This document shows positions 32,829 to 36,907 of a stretch of 64,000 nt of DNA, one piece after another (positions within the stretch are counted from its first letter, which is position 1; each line of letters starts with the position of its first letter). The notes under the pieces were generated by a model. It searched no databases. It saw only the letters and a program-made list of their open reading frames with translations, and was not told where the DNA came from. A program made the position numbers and the translations under genes. The DNA comes from a phage. The stretch lies in sequence record OZ335960.1. The stretch is one strand, 5' to 3'.

Positions 32829-33021
32829 TACTTATAATTTCAACATCAGCCCAATGACCATAGCAAGGAAGACGAAATTCAACTGGCCAGTTAGGGTCCT
32901 TTTCTAATATAATAGACTCAACTCGTGGTTCTTCATGTTCATCAGTATATGGATTTTTATCTGTTACTTTATATGTGACCTTAATGTACTGAATTCCAAA
33001 AATCTTATTAATTATATTCAT
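32815..33021 (-). CDS. Hypothetical protein
   Basis: 68-aa ORF in 30.x cluster. Confidence 0.5.
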   Translation of the reverse strand: MNIINKIFGIQYIKVTYKVTDKNPYTDEHEEPRVESIILEKDPNWPVEFRLPCYGHWADVEIISIENV

Positions 33022-33215
33022 ACTAATTCCTTTAATCCGTAAATAGGAGATAATTCATCGCCCATACGAAGGTCTTCATTTCCATCTACCCAGGAAACAA
33101 TATAAGCCTCTTTTATTTGAATACCACTCCATTTAAATGGAGGTAGAACCTTAGAAATTAATCCAGGTATACCAACTCCCTTTAATTCAACAGTTTGACC
33201 TAAAAAGAATTTCAT
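33018..33215 (-). CDS. Hypothetical protein
   Basis: 65-aa ORF in 30.x cluster. Confidence 0.5.
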   Translation of the reverse strand: MKFFLGQTVELKGVGIPGLISKVLPPFKWSGIQIKEAYIVSWVDGNEDLRMGDELSPIYGLKELV

Positions 33216-33502
33216 TAGAACCTCATCTGAAAACCGTGCGATTTAACATTACCGCCGCCAATATCAGAAATGTTAATTTCACGCGCAATTGAAGGGTCAA
33301 TGTCAATTTCACGATTGAGTTTAGTGATAGCTAAAGTATCGCGCCCATTTACAGTACGGAATTCTAAAGGACATACTACATTAACGTAGTTTTTAATCGA
33401 TTCGCTAGTAGGTTGCAAATGAGCAGGAAGGTCTTTAGGCGCCTTAGAGAAAACTACTTCGCAGAAGTTTTTACGAGTATCAAAATAAGTAGTCATAAAC
33501 AT
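33215..33502 (-). CDS. Hypothetical protein
   Basis: 95-aa ORF in 30.x cluster. Confidence 0.55.
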   Translation of the reverse strand: MFMTTYFDTRKNFCEVVFSKAPKDLPAHLQPTSESIKNYVNVVCPLEFRTVNGRDTLAITKLNREIDIDPSIAREINISDIGGGNVKSHGFQMRF

Positions 33503-33517
33503 AGTATTTTCCTCAGT

Positions 33518-33545
33518 AAGGGGCCGAAGCCCCTTATTTTATTTT
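33518..33545. terminator. Hairpin AAGGGGC-CGAA-GCCCCTT with T-tract on the plus strand
   Basis: Sits between minus-strand ORFs; T-tract orientation suggests it stops plus-strand (antisense/late) read-through. Confidence 0.5.
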
Positions 33546-33909
33546 AAATATCAAATTCGTTAAGAACTACATCAAAGATTGCTTCAAGATGCTCAGGTTT
33601 AGCTTTGTTACTCAGAATATGACGAATCCAAGTTTTAACCAGAAGTTTACGATTGACGCCATTCCAGCAAGGATGAGTCCCTAAATCACGTTGACGGAAA
33701 TCATCATCCAGAGCGATTTTAAAAGAAGAACCTTCTTTCGTGATTGAAACCGTGATGCCATTTTCAAATCGCATATAAACGTAGTTAGGAGTCATATACT
33801 GTTCAATTTCGCATACTGATCCATTTTGATGTTTCCAAAGGCAGATAGTATCAATAGAACCTGCAATACCATTAGAAACATATTTACGTTCAAAGTTGAT
33901 GTAGTTCAT
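33544..33909 (-). CDS. Hypothetical protein
   Basis: 121-aa ORF with own early promoter upstream. Confidence 0.6.
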   Translation of the reverse strand: MNYINFERKYVSNGIAGSIDTICLWKHQNGSVCEIEQYMTPNYVYMRFENGITVSITKEGSSFKIALDDDFRQRDLGTHPCWNGVNRKLLVKTWIRHILSNKAKPEHLEAIFDVVLNEFDI

Positions 33910-33946
33910 TTTTATTCTCCGAGATGTTTAATTGCGGTACAGGTAT

Positions 33947-33975
33947 ATAATATCATATCCTGTACCAAAGTAAAC
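33947..33975 (-). promoter_or_regulatory. T4-type early promoter (GTTTAC - 17 bp - TATTAT)
   Basis: Minus-strand -35 GTTTAC and -10 TATTAT upstream of ORF 33544..33909. Confidence 0.65.
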
Positions 33976-33977
33976 AA

Positions 33978-34310
33978 TTATTTTACTACTTTCCAGTGCT
34001 GCATGTCAAGTTTACCAACTTTTTTCATCTTCTCAATTAAGCGTTCGGCACGTTGGCGAGCTGTAACATAATACCATTCACCCAATTCATTTTGTTCAAT
34101 TTTTCCAACGATTACTGTATTCAATTCATAAATCCAACCAGTAAAGAAATTATGAACTTGAATTGTAAAGGTGAAATCTGTTCCCATACCTTCTGTTGTT
34201 TCTACTTCAATAATATCACCTTCAACTGCCATTAAGAACCACATAGTTTCATCATATTTACCATTGAAGCATTTAGTTTTAACTGTAGCGTTCAGATTAA
34301 TCGTTTTCAT
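33978..34310 (-). CDS. Hypothetical protein
   Basis: 110-aa ORF; early promoter and AAGGAG SD upstream. Confidence 0.6.
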   Translation of the reverse strand: MKTINLNATVKTKCFNGKYDETMWFLMAVEGDIIEVETTEGMGTDFTFTIQVHNFFTGWIYELNTVIVGKIEQNELGEWYYVTARQRAERLIEKMKKVGKLDMQHWKVVK

Positions 34311-34337
34311 TTTATTCTCCTTTGTTTGTGTAAGATA

Positions 34338-34367
34338 ATACTATCACAAAGGAACCATACTGTAAAC
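34338..34367 (-). promoter_or_regulatory. T4-type early promoter (GTTTAC - 18 bp - TAGTAT)
   Basis: Minus-strand AAAGTTGTTTAC...TAGTATTAT then AAGGAG SD and ATG of ORF 33978..34310. Confidence 0.7.
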
Positions 34368-34383
34368 AACTTTGTGCAATCTT

Positions 34384-34410
34384 TGGAAAATAAAAAAGGA
34401 CTCCCGAAGG
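34384..34410 (-). terminator. Terminator after the 30.9-position ORF (minus strand)
   Basis: Minus strand AGGACTCC-TTCG-GGAGTCCT followed by TTTTTTAT. Confidence 0.7.
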
Positions 34411-34420
34411 AGTCCTCAAC

Positions 34421-34639
34421 TTATGCTTTCTGCTTACCAAAACGAGAAGCATCATCTCGAAGAACCGCACGTGCTCGGCGCATGATCTTCTCAACAGTTT
34501 GATTGATACGAGAGTTCGACCCACGCTTGTAGCCAGCGCGTTTAGAATCACCAACTTTCTTTTCAACTGCTTTCTTTGCTTTAGCTTGTTTTGCCATTAT
34601 AAATTCTCTTTTAAATGAAAATGCAGGACTTATTGGCAT
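34421..34639 (-). CDS. Small basic protein (T4 30.9 position); true start probably internal ATG giving MAKQAKAKK...
   Basis: 72-aa ORF as tracked; Lys/Arg-rich; followed by hairpin plus T-tract terminator on minus strand. Confidence 0.5.
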   Translation of the reverse strand: MPISPAFSFKREFIMAKQAKAKKAVEKKVGDSKRAGYKRGSNSRINQTVEKIMRRARAVLRDDASRFGKQKA

Positions 34640-34992
34640 TGCCTGCGCAAGCCCTCAAGGGGAACATAGGTTTTGTATATTTACCGACAGGATAACCATA
34701 AACCCGTCAACATACCTTATAGCTCTTATCTGTTGCACACCGTTAGCTTAAAGGTTCCGGGTTCGATTTCTCGAGGATAAGATATATACTGATGGATATA
34801 TAGGCCTTGAGGCGTACTCCCGATTAGCCATCACCTCGGGGTAGCATGCACTTGCCGCTATAAAATAACATTCAAGAGGTACACCGTAAAACTGCCGGGG
34901 TCTTAAAACTATAATGATTCGCAAATCATTAATCAGACAGTTCGACGGCTCCTCGTTTTAACTTCACACTAAGGCAGTGACTCTCCAATAAA
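34640..34992. other. 352-bp ORF-free, GC-elevated, inverted-repeat-rich segment between rIII and the 30.9-position ORF; candidate structured RNA or gene remnant
   Basis: No ORF above ~25 codons on either strand; stops in all frames; ~44% GC by hand count against visibly AT-rich flanking DNA; several local and long-range inverted repeats. Confidence 0.5.
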
Positions 34993-35241
34993 TTACTTCA
35001 GTGTTACCACAAAGTGACGAACTGCTTTTCGTGCAGCAGAAGCCAGTGGCTTAGCATATTTAAGTTCATCTTTTTCCTGAAGCTCAGCAGCTAATGCAGT
35101 TTGAGCAGGATTCAGATGTTTGAAATAACGCAGGATTTCAAGAGCTTCGGCTTCAACATCAATAGATGCGCCATAGTTTTCGTGACCATTATTCCATGCG
35201 TTTCGTTGCAGTTCAAGAGCGTGTTGTAATTGTTTAATCAT
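34993..35241 (-). CDS. rIII: rIII lysis-inhibition accessory protein (putative)
   Basis: 82-aa ORF immediately downstream of gene 31 on minus strand, the T4 rIII position and length as I recall. Confidence 0.6.
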   Translation of the reverse strand: MIKQLQHALELQRNAWNNGHENYGASIDVEAEALEILRYFKHLNPAQTALAAELQEKDELKYAKPLASAARKAVRHFVVTLK

Positions 35242-35380
35242 TTAAAAATTCTCGTTAGAGATTAAAACTCGGTAGTCACGTTCTTCTGAATTTCATCTTC
35301 TTTCGACAGATCTCTCAGTTGTAGACTACCACATAGAATTGTTCGGTTAACTTATTATTCCGACACCCAATTCATATTAT

Positions 35381-35388
35381 TATTTATA
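35381..35388 (-). promoter_or_regulatory. Late promoter box TATAAATA (rIII upstream, minus strand)
   Basis: Forward TATTTATA just after the gene 31 stop, ~140 bp upstream of rIII. Confidence 0.4.
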
Positions 35389-35724
35389 TCACTTATAAAG
35401 ACACGGAATAGCTTTATAGTGACAGGTAACGAATTTTTGTTTAATTTCTTTTGGCTGCTTAAGACCCAGAGCTACAAAAGGATGCGGAACGTTTCGAATT
35501 TGACCAACTGGAAGAGAAGTCAAATCACCAACTTCGCAGAAACCTTCAGGAACATCAGGACCAACGGAGTGAACTACACACAGTTCAGGAACTTCACCTT
35601 GAACACGTTTACCGATAATAAGTCCTGATTCTGTAACTTCTTCATCACCGGCTTGTGCAGGTTCAGAAACTAAAATAACATATTCACCGACAGCACGAAT
35701 TGGTAGCTGTTGTACTTCAGACAT
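35389..35724 (-). CDS. 31: gp31 co-chaperonin (GroES-like)
   Basis: 111-aa ORF (T4 gp31 length); mobile-loop-like region. Confidence 0.9.
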
Positions 35725-35780
35725 CGTTTTTCCTTTTTGTTAACAGATGAATTAATAATAACAAATAATTCTTAAAGCAT

Positions 35781-36089
35781 TTATTTACCAATAAATTGAA
35801 GCAAATGCTCAACTTTCATACCATTAACGGAAATCAATTTGTCAATAGAAAAACCTCGCCATGCACCGAGTTCAACATCAAATACTGGAATCATATCAGT
35901 AGATTCTTTCCGAGCAGATTCAGTCAATTTACCAGTTTGCATGGTTGGCATAAAGTCTGCATCGCGAGTACCTTTCATAGTACGAATAGTACCATCAGAC
36001 TTTTCAAAAACTACATTTGAAATACCCATGGACAATTTAGTTTTCAAAATTTCACGAATTGCTACTTTTTGTTCAGTCGTCAGTTTCAT
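35781..36089 (-). CDS. Hypothetical protein (31.1 position)
   Basis: 102-aa ORF. Confidence 0.6.
   Translation of the reverse strand: MKLTTEQKVAIREILKTKLSMGISNVVFEKSDGTIRTMKGTRDADFMPTMQTGKLTESARKESTDMIPVFDVELGAWRGFSIDKLISVNGMKVEHLLQFIGK
35797..35804 (-). promoter_or_regulatory. Candidate MotA box (TTGCTTCA) of a middle promoter upstream of gene 31
   Basis: Minus-strand TTGCTTCA about 70 bp upstream of gene 31 ATG; a -10-like element follows; weak, motif-only. Confidence 0.3.
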
Positions 36090-36326
36090 TTATTTACCTA
36101 TTACAGTTTTATGATAAATTGTTCCACGTTCTTTAAGAGTGGAAAGTAATTTTTGATATTTTTCTAAATCAGATTTCCAACTATGCGGTCTATCAATACA
36201 AACCCAGTTTGATTTATAATACTGTTTCCACCTAGAGAAAAAATATTTCTTATACTCTACAGCAAATGAAATGTTCTCGGTAGAATAAGAACTAATTGCT
36301 GTGAGCTGTACCAAACGAAATTTCAT
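36090..36326 (-). CDS. Hypothetical protein (31.2 position)
   Basis: 78-aa ORF. Confidence 0.55.
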   Translation of the reverse strand: MKFRLVQLTAISSYSTENISFAVEYKKYFFSRWKQYYKSNWVCIDRPHSWKSDLEKYQKLLSTLKERGTIYHKTVIGK

Positions 36327-36907
36327 TATTCACCACAGAATTCGTTGATATTTTCCCAGTTTAACTTATTCAAGTTTTTCTTAGGAACATTAAACACTTC
36401 AATACCTGCATTTCGCAGAATATCATCCCAGCCAGGTTTATTTTTATCGTATGTTTCGCAATAAACCAGCTTTTTAATACCAGATTGAGCTATCGCTTTT
36501 GCGCAATCTGGGCAAGGAGAAAGTGTTACATACATAGTAGCACCTTCAATTGAAGAACCGTTTCGTGCAGCAAACAAAATCGCATTTAGTTCAGCATGAA
36601 TTTCATTTTTAGACGACCATTCAGAGTGAGCGCTACGGTGTTCTTTCGCCAAGACAAAACGATCAGTTGAACCAAACGATACACATTCAGGCTTATGACC
36701 TTGAATGATAGTATGTTTAGGCTTATTCAGCAACCAACCTTGCTCGGCAGCATAATCACAACAATTCACACCACCAGCAGGTGAACCATTATATCCGGTA
36801 GAAATAATACGCCCATTCTTTTCAATTACTGCTCCTACCTTCCAGGAGCAGCATTTTGATTCTTGTGATACTAAATATGCAATTTGAAGTACTGTACTCG
36901 CTTTCAT
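36326..36907 (-). CDS. cd: dCMP deaminase
   Basis: 193-aa ORF; zinc-binding deaminase motifs HAELNAI and PCPDCA. Confidence 0.92.
   Translation of the reverse strand: MKASTVLQIAYLVSQESKCCSWKVGAVIEKNGRIISTGYNGSPAGGVNCCDYAAEQGWLLNKPKHTIIQGHKPECVSFGSTDRFVLAKEHRSAHSEWSSKNEIHAELNAILFAARNGSSIEGATMYVTLSPCPDCAKAIAQSGIKKLVYCETYDKNKPGWDDILRNAGIEVFNVPKKNLNKLNWENINEFCGE

Follow-up and report, generated by a model that had tools for sequence, protein, structure and literature searches.

ToxI, the antitoxin of type III toxin-antitoxin systems, is an RNA with a repeat unit of 36 nt, and H-type pseudoknots in messenger RNA (mRNA) are exemplified by the T4 gene 32 operator and the preQ1-I aptamer. A phage-borne copy of the antitoxin, pseudo-ToxI, has been described in the Pectobacterium phage PhiTE (Blower et al. 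2012, as summarised in PMC5449768 and PMC5086642), and in the literature we could search it was described for that phage only. Here we analyse the non-coding spacer between genes rIII and 30.9 in a stretch of 64,000 nt (hereafter the window) from sequence record OZ335960.1, which belongs to a T4-like phage (Tequatrovirus) with 99.5% identity to Shigella phage pSs-1 in this region. We find that this spacer is made up of at least six RNAs that fold separately, one after another, and behave as cassettes; one of them is, by homology, a lone unit of a type III antitoxin RNA of the ToxI type, and another, termed module A, is a structured RNA under strong structural and sequence constraint. An earlier reading of the window, made from its letters alone (the original prediction), had marked an unexplained structured island at this position and missed both its composition of several independent modules and the antitoxin unit. 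The modules and the two genes that flank them are read on the minus strand.

A ToxI-type antitoxin unit behind rIII

The module next to rIII, M0a (34955-34986), lies 7 nt past the rIII stop codon and reads GGAGAGUCACUGCCUUAGUGUGAAGUUAAAAC in the RNA sense. Where a ToxI unit would have A-rich junctions for ToxN cleavage, M0a is flanked by UAAUUUAUU on its 5′ side, after the rIII stop, and by GUUAAAAC on its 3′ side. Its likeness to the 36 nt ToxI repeat prompted a test for homology. M0a proved identical, save for two single-nucleotide indels, to a 38 nt repeat (GGAGAGTCACTGCCGTTAAGTGTGAAGTTAAAAAAATC) on a plasmid of Pantoea agglomerans, where an array of 5.8 copies stands directly upstream of a ToxN/AbiQ toxin coding sequence (the Pantoea-type ToxN is WP_061704446.1); the same Pantoea-type array was also found in Idiomarina. 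The corresponding unit of Jiaodavirus phages matched 66 toxIN plasmids among the small plasmids of enterobacteria at 90–94% identity, with several matches in each, and was 93.8% identical to the ToxI of an E. coli plasmid. In one of the matched plasmids these matches form an array of 5.6 × 36 nt, and a ToxN/AbiQ gene stands directly downstream of it. By this homology M0a belongs with repeat units that stand immediately upstream of ToxN/AbiQ genes. The ToxI helix shows compensatory changes between types, with UUGC/GCAG in the E. coli type, UCGC/GCGG in locus L040 and Pantoea b, and UCAC/GUGA in the window, T4 and Pantoea a. No tandem array was seen, the window and the 100–150 kb interval of T4 holding one unit each, and because only a single unit is present we filed M0a as pseudo-ToxI-like and not as a ToxI locus. 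Even a genuine array yields no ToxI match in Rfam 15, which shows that the database lacks a ToxI model and makes its silence on M0a uninformative.

The T4 unit (GGAGAUUCACUGCCUUAGUGUGAGCUAAAAUC; NC_000866, 130757-130778, minus strand) likewise begins seven bases past the rIII stop. It is unannotated in the T4 record, and the published study of T4 and toxIN (PMC9391042) makes no mention of a ToxI-like unit in T4. In all, ToxI-like units were found in 215 phage records from several unrelated families, and it seems that phage-borne ToxI mimics are far commoner than the single PhiTE case in the searchable literature.

Several individual records deserve mention. Near-perfect units of the E. coli type (one or two units, up to 98.6% identity) occur in Escherichia phage StefiGeyer_Bas88, Klebsiella phage pKMKP103, Vibrio phage JSF12 and Pectobacterium phage DU_PP_I, which belong to unrelated families and have genomes of about 76, 113, 112 and 145 kb, respectively. 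A solitary ToxI-like unit in Vibrio vulnificus FORC_036 (NZ_CP015514; L087, 1195-1260) is preceded and followed, in either order, by a promoter-like TTGACA...TAGAAT and a terminator hairpin. Its vicinity has no annotated ToxN gene, and the unit could represent an orphan antitoxin-like small RNA. A 1245 bp contig in a metagenome-assembled genome of Phocaeicola (L089, 340-380) carries a T4-type ToxI-like unit directly after two tRNA-like genes, and is probably a mis-binned phage fragment.

Module A is a structured RNA supported by covariation

Module A (34711-34870) is a 150–160 nt RNA with six helices defined by covariation. It is closed by P1 (34857-34864 with 34716-34723), and within P1 lie the long three-part hairpin P2 (34833-34845 with 34812-34828), the hairpin P3 (34797-34802 with 34783-34788), and helix P5 (34776-34782 with 34724-34730), which encloses the hairpin P4 (34771-34774 with 34763-34766); P6 (34758-34762 with 34737-34742) follows. 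The 43 base pairs were scored in an alignment of 22 distinct sequences, diverged copies included, against controls in which the 3′ partners were slid by one to three columns and against 500 shuffles. Standard pairs filled 93.6% of cells (28–44% in the slid controls), 27 of the 43 pairs were altered on both sides (8–13 in the controls), and the covariation score was 0.40, compared with at most 0.078 in the controls. For four of the five measures no shuffle reached the observed value, and for the fifth, further standard pair types, one did. RNAalifold, run independently, recovered most of the helices. The alignment contains 46 G.U cells and 8 A.C cells, and this excess assigns the RNA to the minus strand, on which all neighbouring genes are read as well. 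The minimum free energy of the single sequence was unexceptional (minus strand, z = -0.78; plus strand, z = +0.50) and is not informative here; the structure is accepted as real because of the comparison with relatives and not because of single-sequence folding.

About 50 positions of module A are invariant, mostly in junctions and loops, and include the motifs GGCAAG-GCAUG, GGCCUAU, ACC-GGA-CC and GCUAAC-GUGUGCAAC. In most copies the P4 loop is a GNRA tetraloop, a feature that the Slopekvirus-type copies have lost. Every helix is retained, through many compensatory changes, in the diverged lineages (mtp5, JC221, L018, L021, COW86c and PS2). Overall, confidence is high for structure and low to moderate for function.

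This model accounts for several features that the original prediction had listed. A structured non-coding RNA had been among its candidates, and covariation now gives that candidate strong support. The inverted repeat CCCGA (34819-34823) and TCGGG (34836-34840) is present as described and forms helix P2b of module A. The T-loop-like sequence GGTTCGATTTC (34760-34770), for which no canonical tRNA T-arm had been found, is no T-arm and comes from the strand complementary to the covarying hairpin P4, UCGA-GAAA-UCGA. A long-range pairing had also been proposed between CCTCAAGG and CCTTGAGG; the former is indeed at 34653-34660 and the latter one base from its reported place, at 34805-34812, but the two segments do not covary. 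The first of them lies in a local hairpin with a varying loop (34648-34665) that is also found in T4, which lacks the supposed partner, and the pairing is abandoned here.

Protein coding is contradicted by stop codons in every frame in all 22 homologues of the core, which extends to relatives the six-frame stops first seen in the window and leaves no intact protein gene in them of the kind that the original prediction had named as grounds for giving up a non-coding island. A 58-aa open reading frame (ORF) at 34748-34924 has no PHROG match. Hypothetical proteins are nevertheless annotated over module A in several GenBank records: JB75_0063A (L001, 1846-2040), kpv477_220 (L003, 1415-1558) and COW86c_228 (L006, 1204-1338). 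They differ in strand and frame from one another and are almost certainly spurious calls on an RNA gene.

Distribution of module A

About 1013 phage records share portions of the rIII-30.9 region. Module A is present in 412 of them, always between rIII and 30.9, and about 20 Slopekvirus-type genomes bring the total to some 430 T4-like phage genomes. Carriers include Shigella phage pSs-1, the BASEL phages Paracelsus and AlbertHofmann, and JS10. An alignment with T4 and other T-even genomes had been suggested as a check on conservation; comparison with relatives yielded the covarying base pairs described above and identified module A as accessory. T4 matches the island at both ends only, and lacks precisely the part corresponding to window positions 34714-34865/7. 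The central piece is 84–95% identical in phages of Klebsiella (Jiaodavirus), Enterobacter (Karamvirus) and Citrobacter (Moonvirus), in Serratia phage PS2 and in Erwinia phage COW86c. Between genera module A is 81–93% identical, compared with 61–74% for gp31 and rIII. More diverged copies were found in Klebsiella phage mtp5 (Slopekvirus), Yersinia phage JC221 and several IMG/VR contigs.

A covariance model of module A (R1) matched the window once and once only, at 183.8 bits. It revealed no second or diverged copy in the window or in T4 100–150 kb, the rest of T4 being searched by blastn only, and no match in the T4 region with the tRNA, rnaC and rnaD genes (L029). Rfam 15, searched at E values up to 10 with the window and four diverged homologues, gave sub-threshold matches here and there and no consistent overlap with module A. 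A single row overlapped it, snoZ242 in KpV477 (16 bits, E 3.6), a chance match to a snoRNA; the window island itself matched only mir-1275 at chance level (17.6 bits, E 1.6), and matches to Atu_C8 and Phe_leader correspond to the terminator behind 30.9. A pattern scan of 185,579 bacterial and archaeal species genomes returned no match, and scans of metagenomes and IMG/VR returned T4-like contigs only. Searches by blastn of plasmids and E. coli genomes gave no match to module B (described below) and only a few short ones to module A, which at E about 5 we attribute to chance. No paper in the searchable library contained the diagnostic sequences or described an RNA in the rIII-30.9 spacer. As a family of structured RNA module A is well supported, and it is absent both from Rfam 15 and from the literature searched.

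Two resemblances to known RNAs were considered and rejected. The segment GGGAGUACG-CC-CAAGG recalls helix 27 of 16S rRNA, but mimicry of rRNA did not survive a shuffle test, in which the best local alignments of module A to 16S, 23S and 5S rRNA were matched by 10, 22 and 193 of 200 shuffles, respectively. A tRNA or tRNA-like identity was dismissed as well, ARAGORN finding no tRNA gene in the 64 kb window and the T-loop-like sequence being the antisense of P4.

The remaining modules of the island

Between M0a and module A lies M0b (34873-34955), a long imperfect hairpin. Its apex is the inverted repeat AATGATT-cgca-AATCATT noted in the original prediction, which is present at 34913-34930, one base from the position first given. 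RNAalifold on 10 variants gave 25 pairs, of which 5 have compensatory changes, a modest level of covariation. M0b occurs in T4 and in relatives of Tequatrovirus and Mosigvirus type, is shortened in L059 and is absent from other genera.

Module B (34666-34708) is an H-type pseudoknot in which stem 1 is GACGGG/CCUGUC and the loop GGUU(A) pairs with a downstream AACC(U), the linker between these two segments being A-rich (GGUAAAUAUACAA). Both helices are supported by compensatory changes across 16 variants, which include GGC-AGG/CCUGCC, GUGGA/UCCAC and GUC-UAG/CUAGAC for stem 1 and UUGUGAG/CUCACAA, UUGGUAGU/ACUACUAA and CGUUGUUGGUU/AACCAACGGUG for stem 2. T4 carries module B at 130623-130642, where its record has no annotation. 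Module C (34648-34665), a short G-C hairpin with CUUG after it (GUUCCCCUUGAGGGCUUG), is kept across genera with a variable loop (UUGA, UAU, GAAA or UUU) and is placed variously in the island.

Module D (34598-34646), read from the sequence, consists of a hairpin GCAGG...CCUGC (34623-34646) and a U/A-rich leader that includes the Shine-Dalgarno sequence and ATG of 30.9 (34595-34610). In KpV477, Moon, PS2 and PG7 the approximately 90 nt before 30.9 have a different form, D′, with a long GGGAGC...GCUCCC hairpin and three GAAAGAA-like repeats. Behind these comes a second hairpin, UCUCC-AAAAU-GGAAGA, in which the 30.9 Shine-Dalgarno sequence would be sequestered.

Exchange of modules between phages

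Comparison of the rIII-to-30.9 spacers of 40 IMG/VR relatives showed that the order of the modules is permuted between genera and that modules are swapped or lost. Downstream of module A the order is B-C-D-30.9 in the window and C-D′-30.9 in Jiaodavirus; module B lies downstream of A in the window and upstream of it in Jiaodavirus and PS2. T4 has nothing in the slot of module A, where other close relatives carry another hairpin cassette, of 50 nt (E), A and E being exchanged between the shared flanks GAAUGU...UAUUUUAUA and GGUAUGAUGAC. A second locus exists in mtp5 and JC221, where uvsY.-2 and uvsW.1 flank A and then C, and 30.9 is missing downstream; JC221 alone also has a ToxI-like unit there.

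In mtp5 and JC221 approximately 230 nt downstream of module A are conserved up to a terminator (L008/L009, 960-1190, minus strand). They contain a second segment, GGUGAUUGAU...ACCUUCGA...AAGG, that resembles ToxI, and a small candidate ORF (..LLRRPxEFTFGxVIDxIPSxKG), whose 9 differences include 5 synonymous ones; this stretch may be an RNA or encode a peptide. The IMG/VR contigs 3300045988_074297 (L068) and 2974717474_000001 (L069) carry, at 1-2350, a cluster of 12 tRNAs around a truncated rIII (residues 43-82 only). The first tRNA after the truncated gene begins with GGAGAU, as does the ToxI-like unit of T4, which suggests a recombination junction at this site.

Setting and limits of the island

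The minus-strand gene order is cd, 31.2, 31.1, gp31, rIII, the gap, and 30.9, followed by a strong terminator (34396-34417, from a terminator scan). The upstream neighbour rIII (34993-35241) was assigned from its ORF and the annotation of relatives. The downstream neighbour 30.9 (34421-34597) encodes a very basic, Lys/Arg-rich protein of 58 aa that belongs to PHROG 1427, of unknown function. T4 annotates 30.9 with 58 aa, which places its start at the ATG at 34597, and the spacer is therefore 34598-34992 (395 nt). The original prediction had correctly seen a gap here but had measured it as 353 nt; it seemed 42 nt shorter because a mechanical ORF of 72 aa (34421-34639) runs 14 codons past the real start of 30.9 and into module D. 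The same 72-aa ORF was recorded as 'ORF 31.-2' in M37882 (1990).

Within 34640-34992 there is no ORF longer than 58 aa, and the rIII-30.9 gap is the largest between adjacent minus-strand genes within 33000-36800, in agreement with the ORF-free stretch first noted. The island has a GC content of 43.6%, compared with 36.3% for the whole window. This agrees with the earlier description of a GC-rich island, but rIII and 30.9 are about as GC-rich, which makes its composition a weak signal. A promoter scan found no sigma-70-like promoter within the island.

Proposed function and alternatives

The interpretation that we favour, while giving it slightly less than an even chance, is that the rIII-30.9 spacer is an island of independent, mostly trans-acting decoy RNAs that bind proteins and aid the phage on particular hosts. 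Because no promoter lies within the island, it would be transcribed by read-through from the promoters serving rIII, presumably as a 3′ extension of rIII, and the transcript would end at the terminator behind 30.9. The modules would then act independently and mostly in trans. The ToxI unit may neutralise a cognate ToxN endoribonuclease by binding it, as the PhiTE pseudo-ToxI does, module A may sequester or inhibit an RNA-binding protein of host or phage, and together they would form the RNA equivalent of an anti-defence island. The basis of this proposal is homology for the ToxI unit, whereas for module A we infer it only from the neighbouring modules and from a pattern that is accessory (412 of about 1013 records) yet constrained. 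Independence of 30.9 is argued by the permuted order, by the recurrence of modules at a second locus and by T4, which lost module A yet kept 30.9. Also in favour are the restriction of module A to phages in the searches of genomes, plasmids and E. coli, and signs that the site is a slot for RNA genes, namely the 12 tRNA genes beside rIII in some relatives and the metagenomic contig in which a ToxI-like unit follows tRNAs.

A number of observations weigh against the decoy interpretation. Wild-type PhiTE, with 1.5 units, is still sensitive to ToxIN (PMC5449768, PMC5086642), and plasmid-borne toxIN restricts T4, which carries a unit and overcomes toxIN by means of a protein, TifA (PMC9391042). 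Functional ToxI comes as a tandem array and M0a as one unit only, and no Pantoea-type ToxI array was found in complete E. coli genomes. As discrete RNAs the modules are predicted from sequence alone, and module A has no known partner, homologue or mechanism. In most genera the entire island is also the 5′ untranslated region of 30.9, and a cis role is plausible for some modules, especially C and D and perhaps B.

The main rival explanation, which we think unlikely for the island as a whole, develops this last point and makes the spacer a cis-acting leader that controls translation of 30.9 or shields its mRNA from RNases. Such a leader might be bound by the basic 30.9 protein, as the gene 32 mRNA pseudoknot of T4 is in the autoregulation of gp32. 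A leader agrees with the position of the island directly upstream of 30.9 in all main-group genera, with its lack of a promoter of its own, with the hairpins beside the Shine-Dalgarno sequence in both versions, D and D′, and with the small size (58 aa) and Lys/Arg-rich composition of the protein. It does not readily explain why A and C, with a ToxI-like unit in JC221, occur in mtp5 and JC221 where no 30.9 homologue follows, why T4 keeps 30.9 without A, or why one module is homologous to a trans-acting antitoxin, and the permuted order means that neither distance nor context relative to the 30.9 start is conserved. The long regulatory leader suggested in the original prediction is retained as an alternative only for the portion closest to 30.9.

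It is more doubtful that module A is a riboswitch aptamer, or a self-cleaving or catalytic RNA of a new class, that processes or regulates the early polycistronic transcript. The closing P1, the covarying helices and the approximately 50 invariant nucleotides in junctions and loops are what a conserved aptamer or a ribozyme typically shows, and the predominance of GNRA loops on P4 suggests tertiary docking, although this loop is lost in the Slopekvirus-type copies. There is, however, no consistent downstream gene or expression platform as a riboswitch would have, no known riboswitch or ribozyme family was matched in the Rfam searches described above, and presence or absence among near-identical phages (the window phage and T4) would be unusual for a core processing signal.

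We give little credence to the modules being selfish or neutral cassettes, a recombination-prone filler spread horizontally, in which high identity would reflect recent transfer and not function. They would resemble in this respect the mobile regulatory cassettes of hyperplastic regions, which reportedly (Arbiol et al. 2010) shuffle modules in T4-type genomes. The precise indel relative to T4, the exchange of A with E between common flanks, and the greater identity of A than of the flanking genes between genera would all be expected of such filler. The diverged lineages nevertheless keep both the helices and the invariant junctions, which requires long-term selection on a folded RNA, and the G.U wobbles indicate RNA and not DNA. 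Decay of a protein gene, intron or tRNA, a candidate of the original prediction, is extremely improbable even though small hypothetical proteins are annotated over module A and a tRNA cluster whose first tRNA shares GGAGAU with the ToxI-like unit abuts rIII in some relatives, since those ORFs change strand and frame between records, no frame is open or conserved in the homologues, no PHROG, no Rfam intron or tRNA family and no ARAGORN tRNA was found, and the covariation pattern fits a functional fold.

Returning to the decoy interpretation, a bolder form of it is possible, if on balance doubtful, in which module A is the founder of a new class of structured phage RNA that inhibits a defence or RNA-metabolism protein, or else a new ribozyme, and the spacer would deserve the name of RNA anti-defence island. 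If so, antitoxin mimics, tRNAs and novel decoy RNAs would be swapped as cassettes in the manner of anti-CRISPR protein genes. With dozens of invariant nucleotides and strong covariation module A very likely binds something specific, and its partner could reveal a new phage-host conflict or RNA activity. T4-like phages are the best-studied lytic phages and leading candidates for therapy, and the clean deletion of module A in T4 may explain why this RNA is absent from Rfam 15 and from the searchable papers. The presence of a ToxI-type unit behind rIII, in T4 as elsewhere, takes RNA antitoxin mimicry beyond a single Pectobacterium phage and into a large phage family, and it bears directly on the published T4/toxIN experiments.

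Comparison with known systems

M0a shares its sequence and internal helix with ToxI units upstream of ToxN/AbiQ genes, and like the pseudo-ToxI of PhiTE it is a short phage-borne copy unlinked to a toxin gene. It differs from both in being a single unit and not an array, in its position in the 3′ region of rIII in T4-like phages, and in being of the Pantoea/Idiomarina/Vibrio type and not the E. coli type. It also makes up only 32 of the 395 nt of the island, and its processing and inhibition of ToxN are predicted by homology only. Module B resembles the H-type mRNA pseudoknots in its two stems, A-rich third loop and location in a leader region, and differs in having no sequence relation to them, no Rfam match and no fixed distance to a start codon.

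For module A the nearest comparisons are with T4 rnaC and rnaD (species 1 and 2), which are likewise structured non-coding phage RNAs (120–140 nt) of unknown function, transcribed with early or middle genes. Module A differs from them in lacking any similarity of sequence or structure and a tRNA-like 3′ end, and homology was rejected when R1 found nothing in their region; with phage tRNA clusters the locus shares a position beside rIII in some relatives. The riboswitch aptamers and small ribozymes of Rfam share with module A a P1-closed multi-helix junction, invariant junction nucleotides and covarying stems, and differ in that module A matches none of their families and has neither a conserved regulated gene nor a recognisable expression platform. 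Anti-defence islands, such as anti-CRISPR loci and the dmd-tifA-adfA 'anti-TA island' of T4 (PMC9391042), encode proteins, whereas the cassettes here are RNAs and an anti-defence role is proposed for them by analogy. As in those islands, accessory and variable cassettes lie between conserved genes, and one member of the rIII-30.9 island is related to an antitoxin.

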